From Candidatus Omnitrophota bacterium (GTDB taxonomy: Bacteria; Omnitrophota; Gorgyraeia; Zapsychrales; Zapsychraceae): a DNA stretch of 64,000 nucleotides. This document shows positions 3,189 through 48,856 of the stretch, in pieces (positions within the stretch are counted from its first letter, which is position 1; each line of letters begins with the position of its first letter). The stretch covers positions 157 to 64,156 of the forward strand of contig JAJDCA010000066.1 in the NCBI GenBank assembly GCA_029261055.1, given 5' to 3'. The position numbers and the translations under genes are program-made. The notes under the pieces are model-generated. The model searched no databases. It worked only from the letters and a program-made list of their open reading frames with translations, and was not told where the DNA came from.

Positions 3189-3284
3189 TTCTAAACGTCT
3201 AGTACTTCGAGATCTCAGCAGGTAAACAATCCGGTAAATAAATTTTAAAATTTGTTTACTGGTTTGTCGATGGTTACAACATTC

Positions 3285-3355
3285 CGACCGCGCGGTCGCA
3301 TTTCAATCCCGAGCGCAAGTTCCGAAAACCTAATCAAATCCCGAGCGCGCGCTCG
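3285..3355. repeat. pair of related GC-rich 14-bp perfect palindromes (CGACCGCGCGGTCG at 3285-3298 and CGAGCGCGCGCTCG at 3342-3355) inside an AT-rich spacer
   Basis: Read directly. An additional half-site CCCGAGCGC lies at 3308-3316. Confidence 0.4.
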
Positions 3356-3817
3356 CAAATACAGATTCATCCGCAGTAAACTACTCTACAAACAGCTCAC
3401 CACAGAAACAGCCCAGGTCTAATTTCTTTCATTTGCATAAAAAGCCTGTCGCTTAGATGGATAGAAGGCATTGTAATAATTAAAAATCTAATTCTTTTTA
3501 TGTTGAATTAATTAATAAATATATCTATTACATGAGTATTAACGTATACTTGTAGTAGATCATGTAAGTAGATATCCTGTCAAAAACAGACCTCTCCATT
3601 ATTTTCCTCTTGGCCGTCTGCCAGAATTATCATCTATTTATCGGTCTCAAATTTTTACAAATGAACACAATAATTGATTGATTTGATGTGCATCGAAGGA
3701 GTATCAATACCCCTCATCTAACAGGATGTTATTGGGGGCAGGCTGCTTTGGGAGAAGGTGATTCAGTTTGGTTTGAGAGAGTACGGGGAAAAGGCAATAA
3801 ACATTAAATCGTGTTAA

Positions 3818-3900
3818 TGAAGTCTCCCCGGGGCAAGCCTCGAGGAATTAAATCCGTTGGAGATTGGCTAAATAATTTGTTCAGCCAATCTCTTAATTAA
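3818..3900 (+). promoter_or_regulatory. conserved leader element (GGGGCAAGCCTCG core, downstream hairpin, then TAATTAAAT), copy A
   Basis: gaagtctccccggggcaagcctcgaggaattaaat, then hairpin gagattggc/gccaatctc (3860-3892), then ttaattaaat, RBS and ATG at 3920. Related copies at 51644-51723 and 57374-57462. Confidence 0.4.
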
Positions 3901-3919
3901 ATAATAAAGGAGAAAACTA

Positions 3920-4003
3920 ATGGGTGACAAAGGAAAGAAAGACAAAACAAAAAGCAATAAACAAAAACAAGATAAACAAAATAAAAAAGCAAACAAAAGC
4001 TAA
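3920..4003 (+). CDS. 27-aa lysine-rich peptide (MGDKGKKDKTKSNKQKQDKQNKKANKS)
   Basis: AAAGGAG RBS 6 nt upstream of the ATG. Preceded by leader copy A and followed by a perfect 48-bp palindrome. Below the 60-aa cutoff of the ORF track. Confidence 0.35.
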   Translation: MGDKGKKDKTKSNKQKQDKQNKKANKS

Positions 4004-4068
4004 TAGACAAACCTCATTTAGTTTGCAGGTTGTTCCCTTGAAATTAGTTAGGCCCTTAAATCGTATAC

Positions 4069-4117
4069 CTATAAATTAAATATGGGTTGTCTACTAGTAG
4101 ACAACCCATATTTAATT
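4069..4117. terminator. perfect 24/24-bp inverted repeat (taaattaaatatgggttgtctact|agtagacaacccatatttaattta); candidate terminator or operator
   Basis: Exact self-complementarity read from the sequence, located downstream of the tiny K-rich ORF. Confidence 0.45.
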
Positions 4118-4168
4118 TACTGATTACCCTTAGGAAAATATATATTTTTAAGAAAGATGTGATTAATA

Positions 4169-4315
4169 ATGCCCCCTAAAAAAACAAAAAAAAATGGTCC
4201 TGTAAAAAATTTTAAAGCAGGGAGAATGTGTAAAAAGTTCGGGTGTAAACAAAAACTGAGTATTTATAACTCAGAGGAATATTGTAATGTTCATCGAGGC
4301 GAAATCTTGAGATGA
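4169..4315 (+). CDS. 48-aa basic Cys/His small protein (MPPKKTKKNGPVKNFKAGRMCKKFGCKQKLSIYNSEEYCNVHRGEILR)
   Basis: ORF immediately upstream of the GT4 gene. C-x4-C...C-x2-H spacing suggests a small zinc-ribbon-like fold. Below the ORF-track cutoff. Confidence 0.35.
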   Translation: MPPKKTKKNGPVKNFKAGRMCKKFGCKQKLSIYNSEEYCNVHRGEILR

Positions 4316-4328
4316 GAAAAGATATCAA

Positions 4329-8394: not shown

Positions 8395-8471
8395 GCGCCT
8401 GTAGCTCAGCTGGATAGAGCACCTGCCTTCGGAGCAGGGTGTCGGGGGTTCGAATCCTCCCAGGCGCGCCA
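8395..8471 (+). tRNA. tRNA-Arg (anticodon TCG)
   Basis: Manual fold: acceptor GCGCCTG/CAGGCGC, D-arm GCTC-AGCTGGATA-GAGC, anticodon stem CCTGC/GCAGG with loop CTTCGGA, T-arm GGGGG-TTCGAAT-CCTCC, encoded CCA. Body is nearly identical to E. coli tRNA-Arg. Confidence 0.8.
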
Positions 8472-13989: not shown

Positions 13990-16900
13990 ATGCATATTTA
14001 CACAACAAAAAAACGATCAAATTTAATGTATCGAATCCTCTCAGCATTTATTGCAATAGTATTTTTAAGCACCACTATTGTGCCGCGAGGGTATACCCAA
14101 ACAGTGGTTTTACCAACAGCCACTATACTTAATTTACCTGTGCCGGGTACGATGGTAGGCATAACCGAAGGTTTTACACCTGCGATTATCAAAGGAATGA
14201 CGATTCATCCGGATAATCCTTTGGAATTTGATTTTATTGTGGGCCGCGGTGATAAAAATTTACAAGGAGATGATTTAAAAAAAGAAGGCATCAAAATAAT
14301 CAAATATTTTCTGGCTGCACTGACAACTCCTAAAGAGGACATGTGGGTAAACCTTTCCCCGTATGAAAAGAATCGTATTATTGCCGAAGGATTCGGACAA
14401 ACTGAAATGGGAGGAGATCTTTTATCTCAAGACTATCTTTTAAAACAGCTGACATCGTCATTAATGTATCCGGAAGATGAATTAGGCGGTGATTTTTGGG
14501 AAAAAGTGCATAAAAAAGCCTATGAACAGTTCGGAACAACCGATATTCCCATGAATACTTTTAATAAAATCTGGATTGTTCCAGAAAATGCCATGGTATA
14601 TGAGCATGAATCAAGCGCATTCGTAGTAGGCCGGCATTTAAAAGTGATGTTGGAGCAGGATTTTGTAGCTATGGATCATCAAAATTCTGGCATGCAAGGC
14701 ATAAAATTTGAGGTTACGACTGACAATATTGAACGAAAAAGCACGATAACTACGGAATTAATTCGTGAAATCCTTATCCCTGAGATTGAACGCGAGGTCA
14801 ATGAAGGTGAAAACTTTGCCAATTTACGTCAAATTTATAATTCTATGATTTTGGCTACATGGTATAAGCAAAACTTGAAAGAAAGTTTATTAGGACAAGT
14901 ATATATTGATAAAAATAAAATATTAGGCGTCGATGTGGAAGATAAAGATATCAAACATAAAATTTACAATCAATATATCCAGGCATTCAAAAAGGGCGTT
15001 TATAACTATATTAAGGAGGATTATGATTCTGTAACACATCAGGTCATTCCACGAAAATATTTTTCCGGAGGAACTTTATGGGTAAACGAAATTTCAGAAG
15101 TGGATAATTTAGAGGGCATTAACCTTAAACCTAAAATGATTCCTAATAAAACAGATGCTTCAATATTAACAAGTATTGTAGATGCAGGAGATGGTGCGGA
15201 TACGATTTATATTGAAGAAGTGATGAATCAATATGATGGCTCAATGTTAACCGTTCAGAGTGAGCTGGTTAGATTGAGAAATGATTTACCTTTAAATTTT
15301 TCTGGTAATTCGGATGAAATCATGGAAATTAAGAACTGGCCAAAGGTGGAACAGACAGTGAAAAACATCTCTGATGCTACCAAACAACTAATTCTTTTAT
15401 CAACAGTAAAAAATAACCTTTTTCGAGAATCAGTTCAAAAAGAAGTAGGTTTTATTTATGCCATTGCTTATTTCAGACAGCTTCTTCCGAATGATAAAAA
15501 GAAAGTTATAGAGGATTTTAATACATTGGGCCATAAGAATACTGCTGCGTGGTTAATGGAGAATAACAATTTGCATCTTGATGAATTAAAAGCCAAAATT
15601 CAGGACAAATTTGAAATTAATCTTAATCAAGAAACGGTAGAGTATATCAAAATGCATGATGAAACGGTGCGTCGATCAAGGGGGTTACGCTTAGCGGCAG
15701 ATTCTTTGAAAATATCTACCAGTGATCTTGATGTGATTTTCAAAAATCAAAGTTTGCTTGATGTTATTTTGGGATTACGCAAAGGAGCTGTTGTTGAAAT
15801 CCGACAACCTTTAAACAATTTAGAAAAAGTGCTACGACGGCTAAGATTGGCTGAAGGAGAGGCTATTCAATTTGTTCATCTTGGAAAAAATCAATATTAC
15901 GTCTATGAAGAACATCAGCTGAAACGGTTGGCGCAGGACAATGATTTAAATTATGGATTACACAGGAGTGGACTAAACCATTTGATCCAATTGGATATGG
16001 CAAAAAAACAAGGTATATTTTTTGAAGAAGCAAATAAAACAATTAATACAGATGCCCAAAAGAATATACATAGAATAAGCAGTTCCATCACTCTTTCAGA
16101 TACAAATAGAACTATGTATTTTGACGAAAAAGAAAAATTTTGGCGTGCTGATAAAACAGCCTCCCAGATTTTTGAAATTGAAAGAGTGGGAGCAGAACGA
16201 TCATATATTGCAACTATTCAAAGGGCAAAAGGATTTAAAAATGTTTTAGAATCCCAACTTGAAAATTTTTTAATATTTAATGTACAAACCCCAATCACCG
16301 TTATTGATGATTCTAACGAAACTGAACTTGAAATTAATATAAAGACAGTTAAAGAGTTTCAAAAAAAATATCAAATAGAAATTAAACATATAACAAAAAA
16401 AGAATGGGATGAAGAGTATGGATATTATGCAAAATATTTAAAGAAAACTTGGGAACAACAGCTAAATCAAGAAGTTTTACCTAACACTATTAAAGAATTT
16501 CTTTTAGAGACTGAAATTTTGCAAAAAAATATAATTAATGATGAAAAAATAGTCGAAGTCCTGCGTAGTCCAGAATTTTATCATACGTCCGGATTTCGAA
16601 ACAGACAATTTCTGATGGCTGTAGGGGAACCGATTATCCATGGATGGGATGACGATGCCCCTGCACATGTTTACGCGGTGACCGATAAAAAACGCGATCA
16701 ACTTCGCGAAGATGCCTTAAATGACAAAAAACCAATTATGCAGAACATGTTTCAAAAAGTTGGAAAAATGATTAACACAACCATTAAAAGTGAAAAAGCG
16801 TTCTATAAAGAACTCGCTAAGAACGATAATTATGACAACCCTAAAATCAAAGAGATTCTTGACAACTATTTTGGTTATGACCCCCAAGATGATCATAAAG

Positions 16901-18765
16901 GCTTAATTCCTCAAGCAGCAGAAGAAATAATTACATTGGAAAACAAAATGGATGGCATTAATCCTTATTCTGTCCAGAGGTATTCTCCTTTTATGCGAAA
17001 ATTCATTCCAAAACAAGCTCTTAGGATGGGAGACAATTATTCCCATAAACCTAGGATAAGTGATGATAAAGAAAATACATGTTGTATCATTATGCCGGCT
17101 AATCACCTGGGGCATTCCAGACGTGTTGGGCAAAGAATAGGGGATACTAATTTCTTCCTTGGGCAGGTTCCTTATAGGGGATTACTTAATACGCCTACAA
17201 ATAAAAATGAATCAAATGATTTAAAAGATCGCACTACCCATTTTCTGGGGCATGATTTTAATAATGACATCGATACGCAGGCCGGCAAACATTTGGAAGC
17301 TTATATTAATTCAGATGATCATCATATGAAACACATACAGCATACACATCAATCTGTTCTTTTGGTTGAGGGAGCTTTTGGTTTTGCTTCACTTCTTGGG
17401 TATCCTGTTTTTAATCGTAATTCAATGTTTGTGGGCGATTTTCCTCTGCCATCTTTGGGTGGACCGCTGCGTATTGAAGAACCCAAGATGTATCGATGGG
17501 TCGTCGGCCCATTGTTACTTAACACGGTAGCAGCTGCTAATGATAATATTGCAGGCGGACAAAAGCGTCATTTAGAAAATCGATTATATCGCAATTCTTA
17601 CCAAGACCTTACCGAAGTTGTGGGAGGGAACATTGCGGGTGATTTTTACGAAGCGGCCAAAGAGAAATATTACAAAATACTTCCAGAGAAATACAAAAAA
17701 GATTTATGGGGAGATTTATATAATCGACTTATCGTTTTAGCGAATGTTTTTCTTGAAGCTGGGACTGAAGTTAATTTAACAACCAAGCATAAAGAAAAGG
17801 CCTTAGAAGAACGTCAATTGAGAGCCCAATCCATTTCACGATTAGCATTAAAACGAAGCAAGAAAGTTATTAAATTAGAGAAAAATCCAGATGAAAATTT
17901 AAAACAGGAGATAAAAGATATTGATTTAATGATTCTCGACTATGCCGATCATTTTGGTTATTACGCTCCACAAAATACTAAAAATAAAAATTATAATCCG
18001 ATAAATCCTGAAGAAGATTATTTTTATAAAATCAAGGTTGATGGAAATTATTTAAAATGGCAAGCGGTATATCCTGATATGGAAGTCGCTGATCAGAATG
18101 GAGTTTCTTCAGTCAAGAGCAGTGAATGGAAAAATTTGCAAAAAAAATCAGGTGAAACCCGACTAAGTAATTGGGTAAAAGGAGAAACTATTTCTTTAGA
18201 AAATGGCCGGTCCATTCTTTTAGACGAACTGCCAGATAACGATATTGAAATAATTGTACCGGGCTTACGCTCCGACCTTGAAAAAGAATATTTAAAAGAA
18301 GTTCAACAAATTATTATAAAACAGCTTAAAGCCGATGGTAATCAAATGATTATCTGGCCAGATATGGTTGCAGCCGCTAAGCAAAGAAAAAAAGATTCCG
18401 CCATGGCAACAAAAAATGTAAAAAATAACCTTACTTTTAATACAAAACAGACTATAAATGAAGTCGGTGGTATCGATCTTAATCCTGATTTATTAAATTT
18501 ACAAATCAAACGTGATGGAAATGGCGTGCCGTTACCAGTAGCGATGCAGCCTATTGAAAATATGCATATTGAAGGGTTTTTCCCTATTATTATCAATATT
18601 ACACCTGTCAATCTTCCACTTCTTGGTTTTGGAGACACTCTTCCGAAAGAAAACTATCCCAAACCATCACCTGAACTCAGCTTTTGGGAAGAACAAGAGA
18701 GAAAAGCTTTTCTGAGAAGTAAATTAGGTGATAGAAATACACAACTAATACAAGAAAACACCTAA
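13990..18765 (+). CDS. giant secreted protein (1591 aa) with a conserved N-terminal domain of unknown function; paralog of 53880-57287
   Basis: Uninterrupted 4.8-kb ORF with a signal-peptide-like N-terminus (MYRILSAFIAIVFLSTTIV). The first ~350 aa are ~55-60% identical to the N-terminus of the 1135-aa protein at 53880 (LNLPVPGTMV...IKG...DPL.FDF; WVNLSPYE.NRII...GQTEMG.DLL.QDYLLKQLT.SLMYPE.ELG; IPRKYFSGG). The rest is unique and carries no domain I recognise. Confidence 0.7.
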   Translation: MHIYTTKKRSNLMYRILSAFIAIVFLSTTIVPRGYTQTVVLPTATILNLPVPGTMVGITEGFTPAIIKGMTIHPDNPLEFDFIVGRGDKNLQGDDLKKEGIKIIKYFLAALTTPKEDMWVNLSPYEKNRIIAEGFGQTEMGGDLLSQDYLLKQLTSSLMYPEDELGGDFWEKVHKKAYEQFGTTDIPMNTFNKIWIVPENAMVYEHESSAFVVGRHLKVMLEQDFVAMDHQNSGMQGIKFEVTTDNIERKSTITTELIREILIPEIEREVNEGENFANLRQIYNSMILATWYKQNLKESLLGQVYIDKNKILGVDVEDKDIKHKIYNQYIQAFKKGVYNYIKEDYDSVTHQVIPRKYFSGGTLWVNEISEVDNLEGINLKPKMIPNKTDASILTSIVDAGDGADTIYIEEVMNQYDGSMLTVQSELVRLRNDLPLNFSGNSDEIMEIKNWPKVEQTVKNISDATKQLILLSTVKNNLFRESVQKEVGFIYAIAYFRQLLPNDKKKVIEDFNTLGHKNTAAWLMENNNLHLDELKAKIQDKFEINLNQETVEYIKMHDETVRRSRGLRLAADSLKISTSDLDVIFKNQSLLDVILGLRKGAVVEIRQPLNNLEKVLRRLRLAEGEAIQFVHLGKNQYYVYEEHQLKRLAQDNDLNYGLHRSGLNHLIQLDMAKKQGIFFEEANKTINTDAQKNIHRISSSITLSDTNRTMYFDEKEKFWRADKTASQIFEIERVGAERSYIATIQRAKGFKNVLESQLENFLIFNVQTPITVIDDSNETELEINIKTVKEFQKKYQIEIKHITKKEWDEEYGYYAKYLKKTWEQQLNQEVLPNTIKEFLLETEILQKNIINDEKIVEVLRSPEFYHTSGFRNRQFLMAVGEPIIHGWDDDAPAHVYAVTDKKRDQLREDALNDKKPIMQNMFQKVGKMINTTIKSEKAFYKELAKNDNYDNPKIKEILDNYFGYDPQDDHKGLIPQAAEEIITLENKMDGINPYSVQRYSPFMRKFIPKQALRMGDNYSHKPRISDDKENTCCIIMPANHLGHSRRVGQRIGDTNFFLGQVPYRGLLNTPTNKNESNDLKDRTTHFLGHDFNNDIDTQAGKHLEAYINSDDHHMKHIQHTHQSVLLVEGAFGFASLLGYPVFNRNSMFVGDFPLPSLGGPLRIEEPKMYRWVVGPLLLNTVAAANDNIAGGQKRHLENRLYRNSYQDLTEVVGGNIAGDFYEAAKEKYYKILPEKYKKDLWGDLYNRLIVLANVFLEAGTEVNLTTKHKEKALEERQLRAQSISRLALKRSKKVIKLEKNPDENLKQEIKDIDLMILDYADHFGYYAPQNTKNKNYNPINPEEDYFYKIKVDGNYLKWQAVYPDMEVADQNGVSSVKSSEWKNLQKKSGETRLSNWVKGETISLENGRSILLDELPDNDIEIIVPGLRSDLEKEYLKEVQQIIIKQLKADGNQMIIWPDMVAAAKQRKKDSAMATKNVKNNLTFNTKQTINEVGGIDLNPDLLNLQIKRDGNGVPLPVAMQPIENMHIEGFFPIIINITPVNLPLLGFGDTLPKENYPKPSPELSFWEEQERKAFLRSKLGDRNTQLIQENT

Positions 18766-22874: not shown

Positions 22875-24045
22875 AAATTACGACAAATATATCCTGTCCA
22901 CGTACACACGCACGCCCGCAATCTTTGTAAAAGGCAAAGGGATGAATCTTGTAGATATTGACGGAAAAAAATATCTCGATTTCTTTCCCGGATGGGGCGT
23001 TAACAATGTTGGGCATTGTCATCCGAAAGTTATGTCGGGCGTTCGTGATCAAATTTCAAAATTGATTCACATCCCAAATAATTTTTATCATCCTAATCAG
23101 GTCAAATTAGCCAAAGAAATCATCCGTTGTTCCTTCAAAGGAAAAGTCTTTTTTTGCAACAGTGGGGCTGAAGGCAATGAAGCGGCCATAAAATTTGCTA
23201 GGGTCTACGGCAAAGGGCAACGTCACGAGATTATTACGATGAAAAATTCCTTTCACGGACGCACTTTAGGCGCCTTAGCCGCTACAGGGCAACCCAAATA
23301 CCACGAAGGATTTGAACCATTACCTAAAGGATTTAAAACCGTACCTTTTAATGATTGGAACGCATTAGAGTCTGCTGTCACTGAAAAAACAACGGCCATT
23401 TTATTAGAATTGGTTCAAGGGGAAGGTGGCGTCAATATTGCACCTAAAGAATATATTCAAAAAATACGAAAATTATGCGATCAAAAAGATATTCTGTTAA
23501 TCCTTGATGAAGTTCAGACGGGGATGGGGCGCACAGGAACGATGTTTGCTTTTCAACAATATGATATTCAACCGGATGTCATGATTCTTGCCAAGGCTCT
23601 TGGTGGAGGATTACCGATCGGCGCTATTGTGGTTAAAGATAGTATCGCCGATACATTTCAACCTGGCATGCATGCATCCACGTTTGGTGGAAGTCCGCTT
23701 GTCAGTAAAGCGGCCTTAGGCACATTTAAAGCTATTTTCAGCGATAAAATGTTACAAAATGCAAAAAAAATCGGGGCTTATATCCTTAAAGAGCTAACGC
23801 AATTGAAACAAGAAATTCCCTACATTGTTGATGTCCGCGGTCTTGGACTGATGATTGGTATTGAGCTTAATATGGAAGGTAAAGAAATTTATGAAGAGTG
23901 CTTCAAAAATGGACTTATCATCAACTGCACACAGGGAAACATTTTACGCTTTATGCCGGCGTTAAACGTCACCAAAAAACAAGCGGATAAAGCTATTTAT
24001 ATCCTTAAAAAATCATTAACAAAGGTAACCCAAAATGAAACGTGA
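22852..24045 (+). CDS. argD: acetylornithine aminotransferase
   Basis: 397 aa. Class-III aminotransferase (LILDEVQTGMGRTG, PLP-lysine region), sitting in the arg operon. Confidence 0.85.
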   Translation: MKKNQILENYDKYILSTYTRTPAIFVKGKGMNLVDIDGKKYLDFFPGWGVNNVGHCHPKVMSGVRDQISKLIHIPNNFYHPNQVKLAKEIIRCSFKGKVFFCNSGAEGNEAAIKFARVYGKGQRHEIITMKNSFHGRTLGALAATGQPKYHEGFEPLPKGFKTVPFNDWNALESAVTEKTTAILLELVQGEGGVNIAPKEYIQKIRKLCDQKDILLILDEVQTGMGRTGTMFAFQQYDIQPDVMILAKALGGGLPIGAIVVKDSIADTFQPGMHASTFGGSPLVSKAALGTFKAIFSDKMLQNAKKIGAYILKELTQLKQEIPYIVDVRGLGLMIGIELNMEGKEIYEECFKNGLIINCTQGNILRFMPALNVTKKQADKAIYILKKSLTKVTQNET

Positions 24046-24973
24046 CTTAATGAGTTTACATGATTTATCATCCGACGAAATTCTGCATATTCTAGATCTT
24101 ACGCAAAAAATCAAAAATGATAAAACAATGGGGAAGGCAATTCTCAAAGACCAATCGATTGGTCTTGTATTCCAAAAACCATCCAACCGAACACGCGTAT
24201 CATTTGAAGTCGGTGTCACGCAGCTTGGCGGACATTGTTTGTACTTAGGGCCGGATGAAATTAATTTAGGTGTCCGTGAATCAACAGCTGACGTTTCCAA
24301 AACATTATCCCGGTATTTAAACGGTATTGTCGCTCGAACGCATACCCACCAGGATATTGAAGACCTTTGTCGTTATTCATCTGTCCCTGTAATTAACGGC
24401 CTGTCGGATTTATATCATCCTTGCCAGGCGTTAACTGATCTTTTTTCAATTAAAGAAAAATTTGAACAGATTAAAGGTTTAACTTTTGCTTATATCGGAG
24501 ATGGCAACAATGTCTGCCACTCCTTATTAATCGGATGTGCTAAAGTCGGCATTCATATAAATGTAGCAACACCCAAAGGATATGAACCTGACGAAGACGT
24601 TATCGAAACGGCTAAGACTTATGCAGAACAATCCGGCGTCAGCATTGATTTAAGCAACTCTCCCGAGGAAGCCGTTGGACAAGCCGATGTCATTTATACC
24701 GATGTTTGGGTCAGCATGGGACAGGAAAAAGAATCTGAAAAACGCTTAGCTGATTTTGATAATTTTCAAATCAACGAAAAACTCATGCAATTAGCCAACA
24801 ATAAACACATCTTCATGCACTGCCTGCCAGCTCACCGCGGCCAGGAAGTCACCGCAGAAGTGATCGACGGCCCCAATTCCATCGTCTTCGACCAAGCCGA
24901 AAACCGGTTACATACGCAAAAAGCAGTACTGATGTTTTTATTCCAAACACAAGAGACCTGTCAAACTGAATAA
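24035..24973 (+). CDS. argF: ornithine carbamoyltransferase
   Basis: 312 aa. STRTR carbamoyl-phosphate motif and HCLP ornithine-binding motif. Confidence 0.85.
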   Translation: MKRDLMSLHDLSSDEILHILDLTQKIKNDKTMGKAILKDQSIGLVFQKPSNRTRVSFEVGVTQLGGHCLYLGPDEINLGVRESTADVSKTLSRYLNGIVARTHTHQDIEDLCRYSSVPVINGLSDLYHPCQALTDLFSIKEKFEQIKGLTFAYIGDGNNVCHSLLIGCAKVGIHINVATPKGYEPDEDVIETAKTYAEQSGVSIDLSNSPEEAVGQADVIYTDVWVSMGQEKESEKRLADFDNFQINEKLMQLANNKHIFMHCLPAHRGQEVTAEVIDGPNSIVFDQAENRLHTQKAVLMFLFQTQETCQTE

Positions 24974-26310
24974 TGAAAGAATCTGAAACAACTGAACTTA
25001 AAAAGTCTACCGCTGAATTGAAAGATGCCGTTATTTCCATTGCAGCGATTCTCAATAAACATAGCCAGGGAGATATATATTTTGGGATAAAGGATAATGG
25101 GACTATCGTTGGACAGACGGTTGGTCGCCATACTATTAAAGAAGTCACGCAGACAATTGTGGACAATATTGAACCAAAAATTTATCCCAAAATTGAAGCA
25201 AAAAAAATCAAAGGCAAAGAGTGCGTCGTTGTAGAATTTCAAGGTTTGAACAGTCCCTATTTTGCTTATGGCCGGGCGTATATGCGCGTTGGAGAGTCTG
25301 ACAAACAACTAACTGTTAAGGAAATCGAAGAACAGATTGTGAAAAGAAAAAAATTTCTATGGGAAAGTGAGATTTCTAAGAAAACCTTGGAGGATGTTAA
25401 TGACGCAGCTATCCAAGAGTTTATGCGCAAAGCAAAAGAGGCTGGCCGGATTAATTTTGAGTTTACAAGCACGAAAGAGACACTTCGGAAACTTAGCTTG
25501 CTATCTGGAGATCAGTTAACAATGGCCGCCGAAATTTTGTTTTGCGATAACAGTCGTATGGAAATTCAGGCTGCTGTTTTTGCTACAGCAGTAAAGGCCA
25601 CTTTTCTTGATATCAGTAAATTTGAAGGAAATCTTTTTAGCCTGCGTAAACAGGCGGAAGCCTATGTCAAAGAGCACATGAAATGGCGAGCAGACATGAC
25701 TGGAAGTCGACGCAAAGAAATTCCAGAAATTCCCATACGAGCACTTTCCGAAGCAATTGGAAATTCATTGTGCCATCGGGATTATTCAAATCCAAAAGGT
25801 AATGAGGTTGCAATTTTCAAAGACCGAATTGAAATTTACAACCCAGGACAATTTCCAAATGAATTAGATCCGGATGATTTTATCAAAGGTGACGGATATT
25901 CTGTTTTACGTAATCCTTTGATTGCAGAAACAATGTACCGTTCTGAAGATATTGAAAAATGGGCGAGTGGCCTAAGACGGATTTACGATGAGTGTATGAC
26001 GAATCAGGTAAAGGTCGAGTTCAAAAGAGTTAAAACAGGATTTGTTGTGTGTTTTTATCGGCCTAAATGGGAAAACGGCGAAGGTTTAGAACAAAACATC
26101 CAGGAAGGTAAAGAGAAAAGTTCGGAGAAAAGTTCGGAGAAAATACTTCGCTTACTTAAAGAAAATAACACCATTTCTGCCCAAGAATTATCAGGATTAA
26201 TCGGAATAAGCTCCCGTGCCGTTGAAAAACATTTAGCCACATTGAAGAAATTAAACAAAATTAAACGTGTCGGCCCGGATAAGGGGGGGCATTGGGAAGC
26301 TGTGGAATAA
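24973..26310 (+). CDS. AlbA_2 (divergent AAA / Schlafen-like) plus HATPase_c_4/wHTH putative DNA-binding regulator (often mis-annotated as RecG-like)
   Basis: 445 aa. N-terminal ESETTELKKS...GDIYFGIKDNGTIVG (AlbA_2 core). Central IRALSEAIGNSLCHRDY (HATPase_c_4). C-terminal wHTH (ISAQELSGLIGISSRAVEKHLATLKKL). Its start overlaps the argF stop (TAATG). Confidence 0.6.
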   Translation: MKESETTELKKSTAELKDAVISIAAILNKHSQGDIYFGIKDNGTIVGQTVGRHTIKEVTQTIVDNIEPKIYPKIEAKKIKGKECVVVEFQGLNSPYFAYGRAYMRVGESDKQLTVKEIEEQIVKRKKFLWESEISKKTLEDVNDAAIQEFMRKAKEAGRINFEFTSTKETLRKLSLLSGDQLTMAAEILFCDNSRMEIQAAVFATAVKATFLDISKFEGNLFSLRKQAEAYVKEHMKWRADMTGSRRKEIPEIPIRALSEAIGNSLCHRDYSNPKGNEVAIFKDRIEIYNPGQFPNELDPDDFIKGDGYSVLRNPLIAETMYRSEDIEKWASGLRRIYDECMTNQVKVEFKRVKTGFVVCFYRPKWENGEGLEQNIQEGKEKSSEKSSEKILRLLKENNTISAQELSGLIGISSRAVEKHLATLKKLNKIKRVGPDKGGHWEAVE

Positions 26311-26403
26311 TATTTTCTTGATATTGCATCATAACTCCATCGAATTCGATGGGTTTAAAAATATATTAAATTCAAATATAAAAAACTCAGAACTTGCTAT
26401 TAC

Positions 26404-28494
26404 ATGAAAAACTTCATCTATACACTCTTATTTACCCTTAGCATCCTTTTATTTTGCCAAGCTGAGGCAGGTTTCACAAAAGTCACTTCATCAATGGATA
26501 CCAAAAAAACACCTATCCCGGCAGAAGAAATTATTCAAAAACTTATAAATACTTATGCGGTTATGGAAAACTATCAAAGTGAGGCCAAATATATAGGGCA
26601 GTTTGAAATCGATGGACAGATTGTAAAAACTGAAACGACTATGTTGATCAAATTAGGCAAGCCAAACTTATATCACATCAATTGGAAATCTCAGGAGAAC
26701 CAATTTGGCGAAAGCCCAGGAACAATTTGGAACGCCGGGAAAGGAGCATTTAAGTATACCGAATCAACAAATACTTATATCCAAATTTCAGAAATGCCAC
26801 AAGAATCATGTGAGATGAAAAATCAAAAAGAATGGTTGAATATAACAGAGCCATTGTTTGACATTTTCTTTAATTGCAACAATACCTCTTCAAAAATAAC
26901 ACAATTTAGATTAGTAGGAACAGATACGATCAACGGAGAAGACAACTACATCCTCCATCAAACCAATGATTCTTACAAACACACTTTATGGATTTCTAAA
27001 AAAGATTTCTTGATCAATAGGTATAAAAAAGAACCCCTGACAGAAGATTTAAGTATAGATGCCTTATCTGCAAGCCTGATAGATTCTTATGAAGATATGG
27101 GAATTGATCTTACTGAACAGGACAAATCAAAAATAAACAAATTTACGGGAATTTCTTATTTCTCATTAAATACAAGTGAATTTAAAAATATGCACATAGC
27201 ACTAAATTTTTATAATAATTTAATTGATGAAATAAAAGATAATAATGAATTCATATATTCTCTTCCTGAAAATGCTCAACTAAAATCATCTGAAAATATT
27301 ATTCCAAACAAAGAATCTATGCTACGCATACTAAAAAATCTAGATGGATTAAATTATACAATGTTATACACAAAAGGTCTTGAGCTTAGCGAAGAATCCG
27401 TAAGCGACCTCGAGAAAGAATTAGAAAACGATCCTTATAATTTTGAAATACGTTTGCAGATAATAGGGTATTACAGTGCTGATACTGACTCCGAAGAATA
27501 TCGCAGAATTAAAAATAAACACATTCTGTGGATTATTGAAAACCAACCGGATTATAAGGAAGGTAGTAGTATAATCTCTTCCCTATTTTATATTTTTCCT
27601 GACATTAATCCAAATGCCTATGATAAAGCCAAATCATTGTGGTTAAAACAAATTGAACTTCATAAAGATAATCCTGTTGTACTTACGAACGCATCTAAAT
27701 TTTTTTACCTTGTAGACAGTGAACTCTCAAAAGAAATTTTAAATATTGGAAAAAATATTGATCCAGATAATCTTTATTGGGAAGAAAGATTAAAATTCTT
27801 AAATTCATTAAATCCAAAAGATGGTATTCATAAAGAGTATTATGTCAACGGAAAATTAAAATTAGAGACAGAATATAAAGACGGCAAATACAATGGAATA
27901 TATAAAACATATTATGAAAGCGGCTCTTTAAAATTTGATGGAAATGTTAAAAATGGCGTTTATCACGGGATGGGAAAAAAGTATTATGAAAATGGACAAA
28001 TAAGTTTTATCGGGAATTTCAAAGAAGGAGCAAATGATGGTCTGTATAAATTTTTTCATGAAAGTGGTGAATTAATGCACACGTGTACGCAACAATTTAA
28101 AAAAGAAGGATTTACCCGAAAAGACTGCCAACAATATTCTTCAACAGGTGAAATAGAAAAAGAATATTATGCATTAATTTATAAACAGGATAAAGGTACT
28201 ACTCTGGAAAAAATATTTACAAACGATCATCTGTCTATTGAAAAAATCTATGATGAAAATGGGACTATTATAAAAGAAAAAGCATATACTAACGATGGGA
28301 AGCTAAAAGATGGCATTAATTATAACTACTATGATACTGGTAAAGTTCATTATGCACTAAATTACAAAAAGGGGATAAGAAAAGGTGTTAGTAAAGAGTA
28401 TTATGAAAACGGCAGCTTAAAAAAAGAAGTATCTTACACAAAGACGGCAAAAGAATTGGAATTTACAAAGAATTTTATGAAACTGGGGAAATAA
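26404..28494 (+). CDS. secreted MORN-variant (YwqK-like) repeat protein; apparent frameshift near 28436, with the repeat array continuing in another frame to 28583
   Basis: 696 aa. Signal peptide and a C-terminal array of YYENG.LK.E..YK.GK..G repeats. After the annotated stop, the +1 frame reads KDGKRIGIYKEFYETGEIKEEWSYKEGELIRKKKY...*, i.e. two further perfect MORN-variant repeats. Confidence 0.7.
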   Translation: MKNFIYTLLFTLSILLFCQAEAGFTKVTSSMDTKKTPIPAEEIIQKLINTYAVMENYQSEAKYIGQFEIDGQIVKTETTMLIKLGKPNLYHINWKSQENQFGESPGTIWNAGKGAFKYTESTNTYIQISEMPQESCEMKNQKEWLNITEPLFDIFFNCNNTSSKITQFRLVGTDTINGEDNYILHQTNDSYKHTLWISKKDFLINRYKKEPLTEDLSIDALSASLIDSYEDMGIDLTEQDKSKINKFTGISYFSLNTSEFKNMHIALNFYNNLIDEIKDNNEFIYSLPENAQLKSSENIIPNKESMLRILKNLDGLNYTMLYTKGLELSEESVSDLEKELENDPYNFEIRLQIIGYYSADTDSEEYRRIKNKHILWIIENQPDYKEGSSIISSLFYIFPDINPNAYDKAKSLWLKQIELHKDNPVVLTNASKFFYLVDSELSKEILNIGKNIDPDNLYWEERLKFLNSLNPKDGIHKEYYVNGKLKLETEYKDGKYNGIYKTYYESGSLKFDGNVKNGVYHGMGKKYYENGQISFIGNFKEGANDGLYKFFHESGELMHTCTQQFKKEGFTRKDCQQYSSTGEIEKEYYALIYKQDKGTTLEKIFTNDHLSIEKIYDENGTIIKEKAYTNDGKLKDGINYNYYDTGKVHYALNYKKGIRKGVSKEYYENGSLKKEVSYTKTAKELEFTKNFMKLGK

Positions 28495-28623
28495 AGGAAG
28501 AGTGGAGTTACAAAGAAGGAGAATTAATTCGTAAAAAGAAATATGCTACATCAGGTAATATGCTTTCTGTAGAAAATTACTAAACCAAAAAATATACTAT
28601 TACATTGCTTTAGGAGAAACCAC

Positions 28624-29790
28624 ATGAAAAAAATTGTACTTGCTTACTCGGGGGGGTTAGATACCTCGTGTCTTATCAAATGGTTTGAGGAAAAAGGGTA
28701 TGATGTTATTGCCTTTATTGCGGATGTGGGGCAGGGGGAGGACTTTACTTCCATCAAAAAGCGTGCTCTGGCTACAGGAGCATCCAAGGTCTACTGTCTG
28801 AATTTACAAAAAGAGTTTGTGACGGATTATGTATTTCCGGCGCTTAAGGCTGGGGCGCTTTATGAAGAGAAATATAATTTAGCTTGCGCGTTATCTCGGC
28901 CATTGATTGCCAAGCATCTTGTGGACATTGCCCATAAAGAAAAGGCCCACGCAATTGCGCACGGGTGTACTGGTAAAGGTAACGATCAAGTACGATTTGA
29001 AGTGACCGCGCGTTTGATTGACCCTAAAATTGAAATTATCGCACCCGTGCGTTTTTGGGAGTTTAAAACACGGGACGAAGAAATTGAATATGCAAAATCT
29101 AAAAAAATTCCTGTGAGTGTAACCAAAAAAAGTCCGTACAGTATTGATGTCAATCTCTACGGCCGTGCGATTGAATGCGGTGTCTTAGAGGATCCTTGGC
29201 AAGAACCTCCGGAAGATATTTATGCGTTGACGGAAAACCCGATCAAGGCGCCTAATAAACCGACTTATGTCACCATTGATTTTGTGAAGGGTATTCCTCA
29301 AAAAATTGATGGCAAGGCGTATGCGCCTGTTACCTTAATCCAAAAACTGAATCAAATTGGTGGGAAAAATAGCGTCGGCCGTGTCGATATGGTAGAAAAC
29401 CGTTTGGTAGGTATTAAATCCCGTGAAATTTACGAAAATCCCGCTGGGACGATTCTTTACGCCGCTCTGCACGAATTAGAATGTTTAGTCTTAGACCGCG
29501 AAACTATGCGTTACAAACAAGCGGCCGCACAAAAGTATGCGGAGTTGACCTATAACGGTCTTTGGTGTATACCTTTAAAGACTCAATTGGATTCTTATTT
29601 TAACACAGTCCATAAAAACACCACCGGCACCGTTCGTCTAAAACTTTTCAAAGGAAATTGTACGGTCGCAGGACGTAAATCAAAATATTCGCGATACAAA
29701 GAAGAAATGGCAACCTACGGGGAAAAAGACATCTTCGACCAAAAACAATCCGAAGGCTTTGTCAAACTCTGGGGCATGCCTTTTGCATAA
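28624..29790 (+). CDS. argG: argininosuccinate synthase
   Basis: 388 aa. AYSGGLDTS PP-loop and the rest of the ArgG fold. Confidence 0.9.
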   Translation: MKKIVLAYSGGLDTSCLIKWFEEKGYDVIAFIADVGQGEDFTSIKKRALATGASKVYCLNLQKEFVTDYVFPALKAGALYEEKYNLACALSRPLIAKHLVDIAHKEKAHAIAHGCTGKGNDQVRFEVTARLIDPKIEIIAPVRFWEFKTRDEEIEYAKSKKIPVSVTKKSPYSIDVNLYGRAIECGVLEDPWQEPPEDIYALTENPIKAPNKPTYVTIDFVKGIPQKIDGKAYAPVTLIQKLNQIGGKNSVGRVDMVENRLVGIKSREIYENPAGTILYAALHELECLVLDRETMRYKQAAAQKYAELTYNGLWCIPLKTQLDSYFNTVHKNTTGTVRLKLFKGNCTVAGRKSKYSRYKEEMATYGEKDIFDQKQSEGFVKLWGMPFA

Positions 29791-38659: not shown

Positions 38660-39088
38660 ATGGCCAAGAAAGTTGCAAAAGTTGGTATAAAAAAAGAGAG
38701 TGGATATCTTTATTTTGTCGACAAAGCTGGTGATATTTCTTGTGCAAAGATGGCCCGTGGCAACAAAAAAGGGGGTAAACCCAAAAAAGTTGCAAAAGTC
38801 GGTATAGAAAAAGAATCAGGATTTCTTTACTTCATCGACAAAAACGGAGATATCTCCTGCGCTAAGATGGTTCGTGGTGGAAAGAAAAAGAAAGCCACTA
38901 AGAAAAAAGCCGCTAAGAAGACAACGAAGAAAAAAGTAGTTAAAAAAGCAACAAAGAAAACAGCAACAAAAAAAACAGCTACTAAGAAAAAAGCTGTCAA
39001 AAAAGCTGTAACAAAGAAAAAAGCAACAAAGAAAACAGCTACTAAAAAAAAAGCTACTAAGAAAAAAGCAACAAAAAAAAGAAAATAA
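38660..39088 (+). CDS. lysine-rich histone H1-like basic protein with a duplicated ~35-aa N-terminal module
   Basis: 142 aa. Two copies of KKVAKVGI.KESG.LYF.DK.GDISCAKM.RG, followed by a K/A/T-rich tail (KKKATKKKAAKKTTKKK...). Strong RBS AAAGGAGG. Confidence 0.6.
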   Translation: MAKKVAKVGIKKESGYLYFVDKAGDISCAKMARGNKKGGKPKKVAKVGIEKESGFLYFIDKNGDISCAKMVRGGKKKKATKKKAAKKTTKKKVVKKATKKTATKKTATKKKAVKKAVTKKKATKKTATKKKATKKKATKKRK

Positions 39089-39128: not shown

Positions 39129-40406
39129 ATGTGCCTGGGCCGTCTTGAAATAATGAAGAGATATACTATGTTTAATCGTCCAATAAAATCAATTGTTATT
39201 TTTCTTACCCTATTCAACATTCTCTGCATGTGGAACTTAAAATCAGGCTATGCGGAGAAAAGCAAAGAAGGCATCATCAAAGAATTTTATCCTGATGGAT
39301 CCTTAGAGACTCAACGACACTATAAAGCCAATAAACTTAATGGAAAAAGTCAAACATTTTACAATAACGGCCAATTAATGAGTGAAGCAACCTACAAAGA
39401 TGATATCCTTAATGATACTTACAAAACTTTTTATGAAAATGGTAAAACATATTTTATTAAAAGATTTAACAAAGGAATTCAAGATGGTGAAGCTAAAGAA
39501 TATTATGAAAATGGCCAATTAAAAAGTGAAGAAACTTACGTCAACGACAAACTACAAGGTTTAAGTAAATATTATTTTGATGATGGTCAACTTAAATATT
39601 TTATGAATTTTAAAAAGGGCCAGTTAGAAGGAATCAGTAAAGAATACTACCAGAATGGAAAAATAAAAAGCACTGTTACCTATAAAGATGGGAAGTGGCA
39701 TGGATTAGTAAAAGAACACGAGGAAACCGGACATTTAATAGCTGAATGGGAATATCTCAATGGGAAAAGAAACGGTATTTCCAAAATCTTTTATCCTGAT
39801 GGTAAATTAAAATGGAAAGCAAATTTCAAAAATGATGAAATGAATGGCCCCAGTCTTGCCTTTGCCAAAAACGGCCAACAAATCATGGAAACAAATTTTA
39901 ACCAAAATAAATTGCATGGGCTCGTTACAGAAAACTATTCAGATGGAACATTAAAACGTGTTTCTCATTATAAAAATGACTTAAAAAATGGCCTTACAAA
40001 AGAATACTTTGAAAATGGCACATTAAGCCTCGAACGACATTATAAAGAGGCTAGAGAAGTAGGCGTTTCAAAAGAATATTATGAGGATGGAAGCCTCTGG
40101 ATTACAAGAACCTACTTAAATGAAAATAACGATGGAACATTGCGAGAATATTACGAAACAGGTGAATTAAAACAACAATGGATCATAAAAAACGGCCTCA
40201 TTCATGATATCAGTAAGTCCTACTACAAAATTGGCAAATTAATGACCGAAGAATACTATTTTGAAGGAAAGAAAAATGGTATCAGCCGTCTATACCGCCA
40301 AAATGGATCAATCGTCTATGAAGATACATACATGGATGGCGCCAGAATAAACCGAAAAATGTTTGATGAAAACGGAAAAATAATACAACCCGCCGATAAA
40401 AACTAA
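39129..40406 (+). CDS. secreted MORN-variant (YwqK-like) repeat protein
   Basis: 425 aa. Hydrophobic N-terminus, then about 14 repeats of the YYENGQLK.E..Y...K.G form. The start may instead be 39144. Confidence 0.7.
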   Translation: MCLGRLEIMKRYTMFNRPIKSIVIFLTLFNILCMWNLKSGYAEKSKEGIIKEFYPDGSLETQRHYKANKLNGKSQTFYNNGQLMSEATYKDDILNDTYKTFYENGKTYFIKRFNKGIQDGEAKEYYENGQLKSEETYVNDKLQGLSKYYFDDGQLKYFMNFKKGQLEGISKEYYQNGKIKSTVTYKDGKWHGLVKEHEETGHLIAEWEYLNGKRNGISKIFYPDGKLKWKANFKNDEMNGPSLAFAKNGQQIMETNFNQNKLHGLVTENYSDGTLKRVSHYKNDLKNGLTKEYFENGTLSLERHYKEAREVGVSKEYYEDGSLWITRTYLNENNDGTLREYYETGELKQQWIIKNGLIHDISKSYYKIGKLMTEEYYFEGKKNGISRLYRQNGSIVYEDTYMDGARINRKMFDENGKIIQPADKN

Positions 40407-41891: not shown

Positions 41892-41978
41892 GGAGAGATG
41901 CCAGAGCGGTTGAATGGGACGGTCTCGAAAATCGTTGCCCTACTGGGGCCCTGGGTTCGAATCCCAGTCTCTCCGCCA
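41892..41978 (+). tRNA. tRNA-Ser (anticodon CGA)
   Basis: Manual fold: acceptor GGAGAGA/TCTCTCC, anticodon stem ACGGT/ATCGT with loop CTCGAAA, long variable arm, T-arm CTGGG-TTCGAAT-CCCAG, encoded CCA. Close to E. coli tRNA-Ser(CGA). Confidence 0.8.
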
Positions 41979-45421: not shown

Positions 45422-48400
45422 ATGAACCAAGCCGAATTCGTCCATCTCCACGTCCACACACAATACAGCCTCCTTGATGGGGCTTGTCGCATTAAAAAAT
45501 TAATCCAAAAAGCTGTTGATTACAATATGCCGGCCCTTGGCATGACTGACCACGGAAATTTATTTGGCGCTATCGATTTTTATCAAACGGCCGTTAAAAT
45601 GGGTGTCAAACCTATTATCGGCTGTGAAGCCTACATGGCGGTCAATGGCAGTCGTTTAGAAAAAACACCTCGAAATAAAGCAACCGCACACCTTATTTTA
45701 TTTGCACGCAATAAAGACGGTTATCAAAACTTACTAAAATTAGTTTCTGCATCTTATCTAGATGGTTTTTATTATCATCCTCGGATGGATAAAGAAATCC
45801 TTTCCCAACATTCCGAAGGACTGCTTTGTACCTCAGGCTGTATCCGGGGAGAGGTTGCCTGGAACCTCAAGGAAGGAAATTATGATGCCGCATTAAAAGC
45901 GGCTGACGACCTGTCTCAAATTTTTGGCAAAGGCAACTTTTACCTCGAAGTGATGAACCACGGACTTAATGAGGAAAGAATTGTTAACGAAGGTATTCTA
46001 AAAATTTCCAAACAATTAAACCTTCCTATTGTCGCCACTAATGATGTTCATTTCTTAGAACAATGCCAATCCAACGCTCACGATGCCTTGCTGTGTATTC
46101 AAACACAAACAACGCTCAGCGACCCCAAACACATGTCCTTACAATCGGATCAATTTTATTTTAAAGATCCTGACTCAATGAGAAAAGCCTTTGATTGGAT
46201 TCCTGAAGCATTAACCAATACATTAGAAATTGCCGAGAAATGTAATCTGGATTTAAGTTTTAACAAATTTCATTTGCCACGTTTTGATCCCCCCAAAGAC
46301 ACAAAGAATGACCAGTATCTTCATCAACTTTGCACAGAAGGCCTGGCAAAACGTTATCCAGAAATCACAGACGAAATACAACAACGCCTTGACCATGAAT
46401 TAAAAACTATCGAAAAAATGGGCTTTGTCAGTTACTTTCTCATTGTCTGGGATTTTATTCGTTTTGCAAAAAGTGAAAATATTCCTGTTGGACCGGGAAG
46501 AGGATCAGCGGCTGGAAGTATTGTCAGTTATCTTTTGGGAATCACAGACTTGGATCCGTTAAAATATGGCCTCTTGTTTGAACGCTTTCTTAATCCGGAC
46601 CGCTCCGGTATGCCCGATATTGATATTGACTTTTGTTATGAACGACGCCCGGAAGTCATTGAGTATGTGACTCGAAAATATGGAAAACATAATGTCGCCC
46701 AAATCATAACATTCGGAACCATGCAAGCCCGCGCGGCGATTCGTGATGTAGGGCGCGTAATGGATGTGCCTTATTCCGATGTTGACCGTATTGCCAAATT
46801 AATCCCAAATGATTTAGGTATTACCCTTACTGAAGCGCTTGAAAAAGAACCTCAGCTAAAAAAACTATGTGACGAAGACCCCACCACAAAAAAAGTCATT
46901 GAAACAGCCCAAATCCTTGAAGGTCTCAACCGTCACGCCTCAACACACGCCGCTGGTGTCGTTATTTCGGATAAGCCGCTCAATGAGTACACGCCGCTTT
47001 TTAAAACAAGTGACGATCAAATCACCACCGGATATTCAATGAACGGGATTGCCCTCATCGGTCTTTTAAAAATGGACTTTTTAGGCTTGCGTACCCTTAC
47101 AGTCATTAGCCAATCCGTGCAACTTATTAAAGAAAATCACAATATTGATATCGACATAAGTAAAGTCCCACTTGATGACAAAAAAACGTATGAAAATTTA
47201 AGCCAAGCAAATAGTTTCGGCGTGTTCCAGCTGGAAAGTGCTGGTATGCGAGAACTGTTAAAACGGCTTCAACCATCTGAATTTGAAGATTTGATATCCA
47301 TCCTGGCCCTTTACCGACCGGGCCCAATGGGAAGTGGCATGTTAGAAGACTTCATCAAGCGTAAAAGAGGCGAAGTGCCCATTGTATATGACCACCCAAA
47401 ACTTGAACCTATCCTAAAGTCTACCTACGGTATCATTGTTTACCAGGAACAAGTTATGCAAATCCCAGTTGCCCTGGCTGGCTTTTCAATGACAGATGCC
47501 GACCACCTTCGACGGGCGATGAGTAAGAAAATTGCGTCGGTCATGGAGAAGATACGTAAAGATTTTGTATCTGGATGTCAAAAATACAGTGATATTACCG
47601 AAATAGCGGGTAACAAACTCTTTGACCTCATTGACTATTTTTCCGGTTATGGGTTTAACCGCAGCCATTCGGCGGCCTATGCCTTAATTACCTATCAAAC
47701 GGCGTATCTCAAGGCCAATTATCCAGTTGAATTTATGTGCGCCATATTAAACAGTGAAAAAAATAATACCGATAAAATTGTTGAGTATGTCAAAGAATCA
47801 AAAGCGATGGGCATCACCATCGTGCCACCTGATATTAACAATAGCTTTAAAGAATTTCACGTTGTCGATTCAAAAACGATACAATTCGGACTTTTAGCTA
47901 TAAAAAATGTTGGATCAACAGCCATTGATTCTATTGTTGATAAACGAAAATCAGGCCCGTACAAAAACATCTATGAATTATGCGAGAGAATTGACTTACG
48001 TTTAGCCAATAAAAAAGTCATTGAAAGTCTTATCAAATGTGGGGCAGTGGATTGTTTAGGGGTATTCCGCTCTCAAATGATGGCGGTTTCAGACAGAGCC
48101 CTTGAACAGGGATCTAAAACACAAAAAGAAAAAGCCCAGGGCCAAGTCTCATTCTTTAATCTTGGCGCCGAAATGGGTGGTTTTACAAAAAAAATGGATG
48201 ACTTTCCTGATATCAAAGAATGGCATAAACCCCAAATTTTATCATTTGAAAAAGAAATTCTAGGATTTTATATCAGTGGTCACCCTCTAGAACATTATGA
48301 AATTGAAATTAAAAAATTTACAGACTTCTCAACAAAGAGCCTTAGAACAGCCATTGACGGAGAAGGTGTACGCCTGGTCGGACTCATCGAACATGTTAAA

Positions 48401-48856
48401 TTAACCAATACCCGCAAAAAGAACGAACGTATGGCTATTATCAAAATTGGAGATATGGAAGGGGAAGTCGAGGTTGTCATTTTTCCTTCAACCTATGCAA
48501 CTTTAGCCTCGTATCTCACTGAAGGAGAAGTTGTTTTCATAAACGGAACAGTAAACATCCGACAAGATACTCCCACTATCATTGCCAATGATATGCGCCG
48601 TATTCAAGACGTTTATAGTGCCATCAAGGCCATTACACTGGACTTATCCAAAGTTGAAAAACAAAATTTTATGGACCTAAAAAGACGCCTTTTGACTTTC
48701 CCTGGAAAAGTCCCTGTATATCTACAAATGAGTACAAAATCCAACAAAAGCGTCCAAATCCGCGTCGGCGAAGACCTCTGCGTGACGCCGAATGAAAATT
48801 TGATGAATGAAGTAAAGAAATTAGTAGGCCAAGAAGGATTGTCTGTAGCGTTTTAA
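45422..48856 (+). CDS. dnaE: DNA polymerase III alpha subunit
   Basis: 1144 aa. PHP domain (HLHVHTQYSLLDG, MTDHGNLFG), polymerase core, OB-fold. Confidence 0.95.
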   Translation: MNQAEFVHLHVHTQYSLLDGACRIKKLIQKAVDYNMPALGMTDHGNLFGAIDFYQTAVKMGVKPIIGCEAYMAVNGSRLEKTPRNKATAHLILFARNKDGYQNLLKLVSASYLDGFYYHPRMDKEILSQHSEGLLCTSGCIRGEVAWNLKEGNYDAALKAADDLSQIFGKGNFYLEVMNHGLNEERIVNEGILKISKQLNLPIVATNDVHFLEQCQSNAHDALLCIQTQTTLSDPKHMSLQSDQFYFKDPDSMRKAFDWIPEALTNTLEIAEKCNLDLSFNKFHLPRFDPPKDTKNDQYLHQLCTEGLAKRYPEITDEIQQRLDHELKTIEKMGFVSYFLIVWDFIRFAKSENIPVGPGRGSAAGSIVSYLLGITDLDPLKYGLLFERFLNPDRSGMPDIDIDFCYERRPEVIEYVTRKYGKHNVAQIITFGTMQARAAIRDVGRVMDVPYSDVDRIAKLIPNDLGITLTEALEKEPQLKKLCDEDPTTKKVIETAQILEGLNRHASTHAAGVVISDKPLNEYTPLFKTSDDQITTGYSMNGIALIGLLKMDFLGLRTLTVISQSVQLIKENHNIDIDISKVPLDDKKTYENLSQANSFGVFQLESAGMRELLKRLQPSEFEDLISILALYRPGPMGSGMLEDFIKRKRGEVPIVYDHPKLEPILKSTYGIIVYQEQVMQIPVALAGFSMTDADHLRRAMSKKIASVMEKIRKDFVSGCQKYSDITEIAGNKLFDLIDYFSGYGFNRSHSAAYALITYQTAYLKANYPVEFMCAILNSEKNNTDKIVEYVKESKAMGITIVPPDINNSFKEFHVVDSKTIQFGLLAIKNVGSTAIDSIVDKRKSGPYKNIYELCERIDLRLANKKVIESLIKCGAVDCLGVFRSQMMAVSDRALEQGSKTQKEKAQGQVSFFNLGAEMGGFTKKMDDFPDIKEWHKPQILSFEKEILGFYISGHPLEHYEIEIKKFTDFSTKSLRTAIDGEGVRLVGLIEHVKLTNTRKKNERMAIIKIGDMEGEVEVVIFPSTYATLASYLTEGEVVFINGTVNIRQDTPTIIANDMRRIQDVYSAIKAITLDLSKVEKQNFMDLKRRLLTFPGKVPVYLQMSTKSNKSVQIRVGEDLCVTPNENLMNEVKKLVGQEGLSVAF

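Follow-up and report, generated by a model that had tools for sequence, protein, structure and literature searches.

A probable frameshift mutation near the 3' end of a MORN_2 repeat gene in an Omnitrophota genome

The window (the whole stretch of DNA that was analysed, 64,000 nucleotides long) contains two genes with MORN_2 repeats, the first of which, located upstream of argG, is the subject of this analysis (Table 1). As it stands, this gene encodes a protein of 696 amino acids that ends in ...YYENGSLKKEVSYTKTAKELEFTKNFMKLGK (also given as ...KEYYENGSLKKEVSYTKTAKELEFTKNFMKLGK). From the N-terminus to the C-terminus, the protein consists of a signal-like peptide, a DUF2092 domain, a helical middle domain and an array of MORN_2 repeats. 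The N-terminal segment MKNFIYTLLFTLSILLFCQAEA resembles a signal peptide, suggesting that the protein is exported. Membership in the MORN_2 family (PF07661) is clear from the Pfam score of 64.5 bits against a gathering threshold of 29.6, and the LolA-like DUF2092 domain (PF09865) is recognized at residues 45-204 with 28.1 bits against a threshold of 21.2. The protein does not belong to the LIC20035 family adhesins (NCBIfam NF033566): its score of 37-40 bits, compared with the curated cut-off of 250, reflects common repeat similarity. The helical middle region (residues ~310-470; gene part 26404-27813) belongs to no Pfam family, with 1605 proteins among 1.8 billion cluster representatives matching it at E <= 0.001, often in the form of an independent module of ~150 amino acids, and may represent an uncurated domain family.

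The units of the repeat array start at residues 478, 502, 526, 550, 577, 615, 641 and 665, and most of them are 24 amino acids (72 nt) long, with irregular units of 27, 38 and 26 amino acids in the middle of the array. The DNA contains a 51-nt repeat family, denoted D1, whose members start 72 and 72 nt apart to either side of the irregular mid-array. The 72-nt spacing, together with the 24-residue register that is obtained after removal of 2 nt (see below), corresponds to the tandem units of ~22-24 residues in constant register that are typical of MORN_2. In the ORF as it stands, this register breaks 18 codons ahead of the stop codon at 28492-28494.

Table 1. Features of the argF-argG interval and the second MORN_2 gene (window coordinates)
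Feature	Position	Strand	Basis and remarks
argF	24035..24973	+	precedes the 445-aa gene
AlbA_2 / HATPase_c_4 / HTH protein, 445 aa	24973..26310	+	Pfam; upstream neighbour of the MORN gene
Truncated CDS of the MORN gene	26404..28494	+	696 aa, from the ORF list
MORN_2 repeat array, frame 0	27835..28437	+	unit coordinates; 72-nt spacing of DNA repeat family D1
A7 run, in phase A_AAA_AAA	28419..28425	+	sequence; not the inferred lesion site
Inferred indel site TACACAAAG	28436..28443	+	repair scan, Pfam, DNA unit spacing
Out-of-frame missense tail TKTAKELEFTKNFMKLGK and premature TAA	28438..28494	+	read from the sequence
Stranded original 3' end, frame +2	28440..28583	+	Pfam, paralogue match, composition, unit coordinates
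GGAGAAA ribosome-binding site and argG ATG	28612..28626	+	sequence; argG starts at 28624
Second MORN_2 gene	39129..40406	+	Pfam, 174.7 bits; signal-like N-terminus, fifteen 24-aa units

Five loci from the nearest Omnitrophota relatives have the gene order rpsI-argC-argJ-argB-argD-argF-(71-aa ORF, present in four of the five)-argG-argH-lysA-dapF-dapA-dapB, and neither the 445-aa gene nor the MORN gene is found between argF and argG. These two genes thus look like a lineage-specific insertion in a conserved arg-lys operon. The ArgG protein of the window shares 80-81% identity with proteins of Candidatus Omnitrophica/Omnitrophota MAGs. The gap between the MORN gene and argG is 40 nt when counted from the original stop codon described below and 129 nt from the premature one, and contains no terminator or promoter beyond what is expected by chance. 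The G+C content of the MORN gene is 30% (28.5-33% over positions 26300-28600), compared with 38% for the window and 38-44% for the flanks. As a sign of foreign origin, this low G+C content is suggestive only, given that the other MORN gene is at 33% and that a composition rich in K, N, Y and E favours AT-rich codons.

The window is 93% coding, and among the 52 ORFs chosen for its layout, only two short ones (84 and 61 amino acids) are on the minus strand. The layout includes very large ORFs at 13990-18765 (1591 amino acids), 45422-48856 (1144 amino acids) and 53880-57287 (1135 amino acids), as well as one from 58182 onward that encompasses more than 1939 amino acids and runs off the end of the window. 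An exception to the dense coding is a 1.1-kb stretch at 3189-4328 that includes no ORF of 60 or more amino acids, with an A-rich tandem repeat (3927-3992) and strong hairpins, for example at 3231-3262 and ~4064-4127; all Rfam families stay below their gathering scores in this stretch, and the fold of 3230-3900 has a z-score of -2.46. The only Rfam matches at the gathering threshold in the window are two tRNA genes on the plus strand, at 8395-8468 and 41892-41975. Just upstream of the second MORN gene, on the plus strand, lies a lysine-rich ORF of 142 amino acids (38660-39088) that contains A8/A9 runs at 38968-38975, 39044-39052 and 39073-39080, and the end of this ORF is overlapped by the open frame of the second MORN gene.

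The initial annotation proposed that the MORN gene is truncated by a frameshift near an A7 homopolymer and that the repeats continue in another frame to 28583; the end of the ORF and the repeat-bearing second frame are as described there, with coordinates that are correct apart from those of the homopolymer, which were one base too low (28418-28424). The direction of the shift, however, was given as +1, whereas the downstream frame is offset by +2 (equivalent to -1), which corresponds to a net change of +2 or -1 nt. Between the TGA at 28404-28406 and the TAA at 28581-28583, this frame contains no stop codon and translates as KRQLKKRSILHKDGKRIGIYKEFYETGEIKEEWSYKEGELIRKKKYATSGNMLSVENY*. Rather than the two perfect repeats claimed, the stranded 3' end consists of the final 10 residues of the interrupted unit (KDGKRIGIYK), a complete unit of 24 amino acids (EFYETGEIKEEWSYKEGELIRKKK) and a half unit of 13 amino acids (YATSGNMLSVENY), followed by the original TAA. 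The first start codon in the open stretch is the ATG at 28560, so that the tail is not translatable on its own. The ORF list contains no minus-strand ORFs of 30 or more amino acids that overlap the frameshift site.

Several lines of evidence bear on the origin of this tail. On its own, the 47-residue tail (28440-28580) matches Pfam MORN_2 with 27.2 bits (E = 3.1e-6), just below the whole-protein cut-off, and it aligns with the repeat units of the second MORN_2 gene with up to 42% identity (E = 9e-9). In a ranking of 1835 six-frame peptides from the window, for which a second, independently built profile derived from the C-termini of distant homologues was used, the +2-frame fragment 28407-28580 comes third with 11.9 bits, compared with 6.9 bits for the best noise match, and is outranked only by the two true MORN ORFs. 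Within the gene body, the +2 frame contains 76 stops in 666 codons (~1 per 9), and its longest open run is 39 codons; the 59 open codons of the tail have a probability of ~8e-4. The composition of the tail by codon position, when read in frame +2, agrees with that of the gene body. It could be argued that an open frame in an AT-rich, lysine-rich sequence would look repeat-like merely by chance, all the more in a gene with 30% G+C and a low-complexity-like composition, but this explanation is refuted by the Pfam and paralogue matches of the tail, by the exact 24-residue register after repair and by the improbability of the open frame. The tail is bona fide MORN_2 coding sequence. A C-terminal 'cap' that seemed to be shared with distant homologues (GELIRKKKYATSGNMLSVENY looks like GKVVKQKKYVNDKVYSIENF of homologue P0003 by eye) was dropped as evidence because the similarity is not significant: the cap profile yields 1.5-3.9 bits, and 71 of 1876 shuffles equal it.

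The regularity of the repeats allows the position of the indel to be narrowed down. A repair scan across 28396-28499 covered all possible 1-nt insertions (each of 4 bases at 104 positions) and all 2-nt deletions, and the resulting translations were scored with a 48-residue profile that, having been built from the fifteen exact 24-aa units of the paralogue, does not depend on this locus. Without repair, the sequence scores 44.6 bits with the paralogue profile and 29.6 bits with Pfam MORN_2 (last 56 amino acids). Deletion of 2 nt with a start at 28436-28439 (bases within 28436-28440) raises these scores to 101.7 and 49.5 bits, respectively. The removed pair is AC or CA; the repair turns TACACAAAG into TACAAAG and yields ...EVSY|KDGKRIG... 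in the protein. The other intact-type consensus considered at the site is TACACAAAAG. The best 1-nt insertion (28437/28438) reaches 68.8 bits with the paralogue profile, and the repair that produces YTKDGK (1 nt added at the site, corresponding to a lesion from A4 to A3) scores 46.2 bits with Pfam. Repairs in the A run fare worse: expansion of A7 to A8 gives 64.5 bits with the paralogue profile and 42.3 bits with Pfam, and contraction to A5 gives 73.7 bits with the paralogue profile, that is, 28-37 bits lower with the paralogue profile and 7 bits lower with Pfam than the repairs at the inferred site. The Pfam model ranks the repairs in the same way as the paralogue profile does (49.5 > 46.2 > 42.3 bits). 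The repaired C-terminal domain of 248 residues scores 85 bits against Pfam MORN_2.

The DNA units tell the same story in that the D1 spacing across the lesion site is 74 nt instead of 72, and removal of the 2 nt gives final units of exactly 24 + 24 + 24 + 13 amino acids. On the strength of this periodicity, the lesion was probably a 2-nt tandem duplication of AC/CA (TAC AAA -> TAC AC AAA). A 1-nt deletion (ACA AAA GAC -> ACA AAG AC, with YTKDGK in the ancestral protein) is a considerably less probable alternative that deserves consideration, because the preceding unit contains AYTNDGK and the middle units are 26-38 amino acids long, so that a unit of 25 residues is possible. A lesion in the A run itself would be a surprise. 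We infer the ancestral junction from repeat periodicity alone, no ortholog having been found. Repeat periodicity can thus place an indel within a few bases even without an ortholog.

The initial annotation had suggested comparison with orthologs as a check for a contiguous C-terminus, and none were detected in the collections searched. There is no ortholog or intact allele of the repaired protein among 5.8 billion protein clusters, none among 1.8 billion cluster representatives searched with the non-repeat N-terminal 470 amino acids, and none in GTDB species genomes and JGI metagenomes. These searches returned either repeat proteins with 25-37% identity or proteins with the same N-terminal domains but no MORN repeats. 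The repeat domain matches only TPR+MORN_2 proteins of ~1100 amino acids, with roughly 30% identity; the DUF2092 and helical modules of the N-terminal part are found elsewhere without MORN repeats, and the complete architecture (DUF2092, helical domain and MORN_2) is not present in any other protein of the collections searched. The other MORN_2 proteins that were retrieved (L002, L003 and L004-L006) are unrelated and uninformative with respect to the C-terminus. In terms of its distribution, then, the MORN gene behaves as a lineage-specific accessory gene.

The three causes put forward in the initial annotation were a sequencing indel, a recent inactivating mutation and slippage-based phase variation. 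If sequencing or assembly were at fault, the gene of the organism would be intact (725-726 amino acids), and the indel would exist only in the consensus. MAG consensus sequences can carry indels, and the protein is a singleton, the allele of which is confirmed by no second genome. However, a Logan contig from run SRR15505515 yields the very same 696-aa protein and matches the window at each of the 7381 bases compared, the site included, although both assemblies may share reads. The inferred site is not a long homopolymer; the 103 A/T runs of at least 7 bases (7-9 nt) in the window leave the long ORFs visibly undisturbed; and the ORF layout of the 64-kb window, which is 93% coding and includes the ORFs of over 1100 codons listed above, gives no sign of other broken genes. 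The assembly does not look indel-prone, and the frameshift appears to be solitary in the window. Given the base-identical Logan assembly and the otherwise clean window, an artefact is unlikely, and a read-level error is less plausible than a real mutation in the organism. The start of the Logan contig (L001) falls at window position 26114, close to where the G+C content drops and ~290 nt ahead of the MORN gene; a branch in the assembly graph, strain heterogeneity at the boundary of the insertion or simply coverage might account for this.

Phase variation would require that a hypermutable A7 or AC tract toggles the C-terminal repeats within the population. The signal-like peptide and the repeat domains, of a kind tied to adhesion and invasion in Fusobacterium (PMC4222103), would suit a phase-variable protein, and the A7 run lies 11-18 nt upstream of the inferred lesion. 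The lesion, nevertheless, does not map to this run; there is no hypermutable simple-sequence tract at the shift site, which is TACACAAAG, and (AC)2 is not such a tract either, so that the one testable feature of a contingency locus is absent. A7 runs are ubiquitous in the genome, and a switch of this type would drop only ~2 of the 10 repeats rather than turn the gene off. A single allele was found in every collection searched, and an exact-pattern scan of the JGI metagenomes for junction variants, with 0-4 variable bases at the site, produced no match. Phase variation, for which there is no supporting feature, therefore seems highly improbable. Hardly more attractive, and if anything slightly less so, is programmed or incidental recoding, whereby the ribosome or the RNA polymerase would slip by -1 on A_AAA_AAA and some of the product would read ...SLKKRSILHKDGK... 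It is true that the phase of the heptamer is suitable and that the -1 frame stays open over 28407-28583, but equivalent in-phase heptamers (A_AAA_AA[AG]) occur 53 times in the 19,297 codons of the ordinary ORFs in the window, and none of them visibly affects the long ORFs. Because both such heptamers and long A/T runs are common in the window, the A7 run next to the lesion is not special. The 111-nt region around and downstream of the heptamer has no stimulatory structure (MFE of -7 kcal/mol, z-score of +1.06, with 170 of 200 shuffles folding at least as well), and there is no Shine-Dalgarno-like or GGAG-like motif in the 30 nt upstream. The homology does not switch frames at the heptamer: frame 0 keeps the repeat consensus (EVSY) for four codons beyond the run, and the slipped product (KKRSILHKDGK) would replace the consensus EVSY with RSILH. 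Thus, of the three testable features of a programmed -1 site, only the in-phase slippery heptamer is present, and it is not specific; no orthologs were found in which its conservation could be seen. Taken together, a functional frameshift, be it by -1 slippage on the heptamer or by indel switching in the population, that would yield short and full-length forms is very doubtful; if true, an Omnitrophota cell would make two forms of an exported MORN_2 protein.

The likely explanation is a genuine, non-programmed frameshift mutation at the inferred site, 57 nt before the present stop codon, that truncates the MORN gene, and among the three proposed causes, a recent truncating mutation fits best. 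Of the original proposal, the frameshift truncation and the original C-terminus and stop one frame over stand, whereas the direction of the shift and its link to the homopolymer and to phase variation do not. Under the preferred reading, a small indel within the site would shift the frame, and the ribosome would add a junk tail of 18 wrong residues before it stops, so that the product would lose the last 47 residues, that is, ~2 of the ~10 MORN_2 units or ~6% of the protein, and the untranslated gap ahead of argG would grow from 40 to 129 nt. The junction of the truncated product would be marked by the peptide EVSYTKTAKELEFTK. The other frame still carries the complete original 3' end, which suggests that the event is recent, unless the truncation is tolerated and decay of the remnant has yet to set in. 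With only the last ~6% lost, the shortened exported protein is probably still able to fold and may well remain functional, and relaxed selection could plausibly act on an accessory gene of this type. Because only two of the ~10 terminal repeats of this accessory exported protein are missing, the biological effect is probably small. In annotation, a frameshift flag should be attached to the 696-aa product, with an original length of ~725 amino acids and the stop at 28583, and the adjacent homopolymer should not be counted as a phase-variation tract.

Comparison with known systems helps to place this gene. In programmed -1 frameshifting of the dnaX type, an A_AAA_AAG heptamer acts together with stimulators. 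The MORN gene resembles dnaX in that an open -1 frame follows a slippery, A-rich heptamer in the correct phase, but differs in that a stimulatory hairpin or a Shine-Dalgarno-like element is lacking, the homology junction lies off the heptamer and such heptamers are common. Simple-sequence contingency loci are phase-variable surface genes; the combination of an exported repeat protein and a frameshift close to a homopolymer is reminiscent of these, but the tract here is short (A7) and is not the shift site, and the protein loses a small C-terminal part instead of being switched ON or OFF. Frameshifted CDSs of the kind proposed here are a standard phenomenon, and the MORN gene shares with other frameshift-disrupted bacterial CDSs a small indel, homology that continues in another frame to the original stop and a short missense tail, although, compared with the typical cases, it loses only the last ~6%; homology-based annotation pipelines presumably would not flag this frameshift, there being no ortholog. 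With regard to the protein itself, the bacterial MORN2 family consists mostly of exported proteins with variable repeat numbers, the molecular function of which is not known, and is expanded, in the exported form, in invasive Fusobacterium (PMC4222103). The product of the MORN gene resembles the Fusobacterium MORN2 proteins (PMC4222103) in its tandem units of 22-24 amino acids with the YYxNGxL...Y.dGk..G pattern, the signal peptide and the variability of repeats and domains, and differs from them in that the host is an Omnitrophota MAG and the array is fused to DUF2092 and a helical domain.
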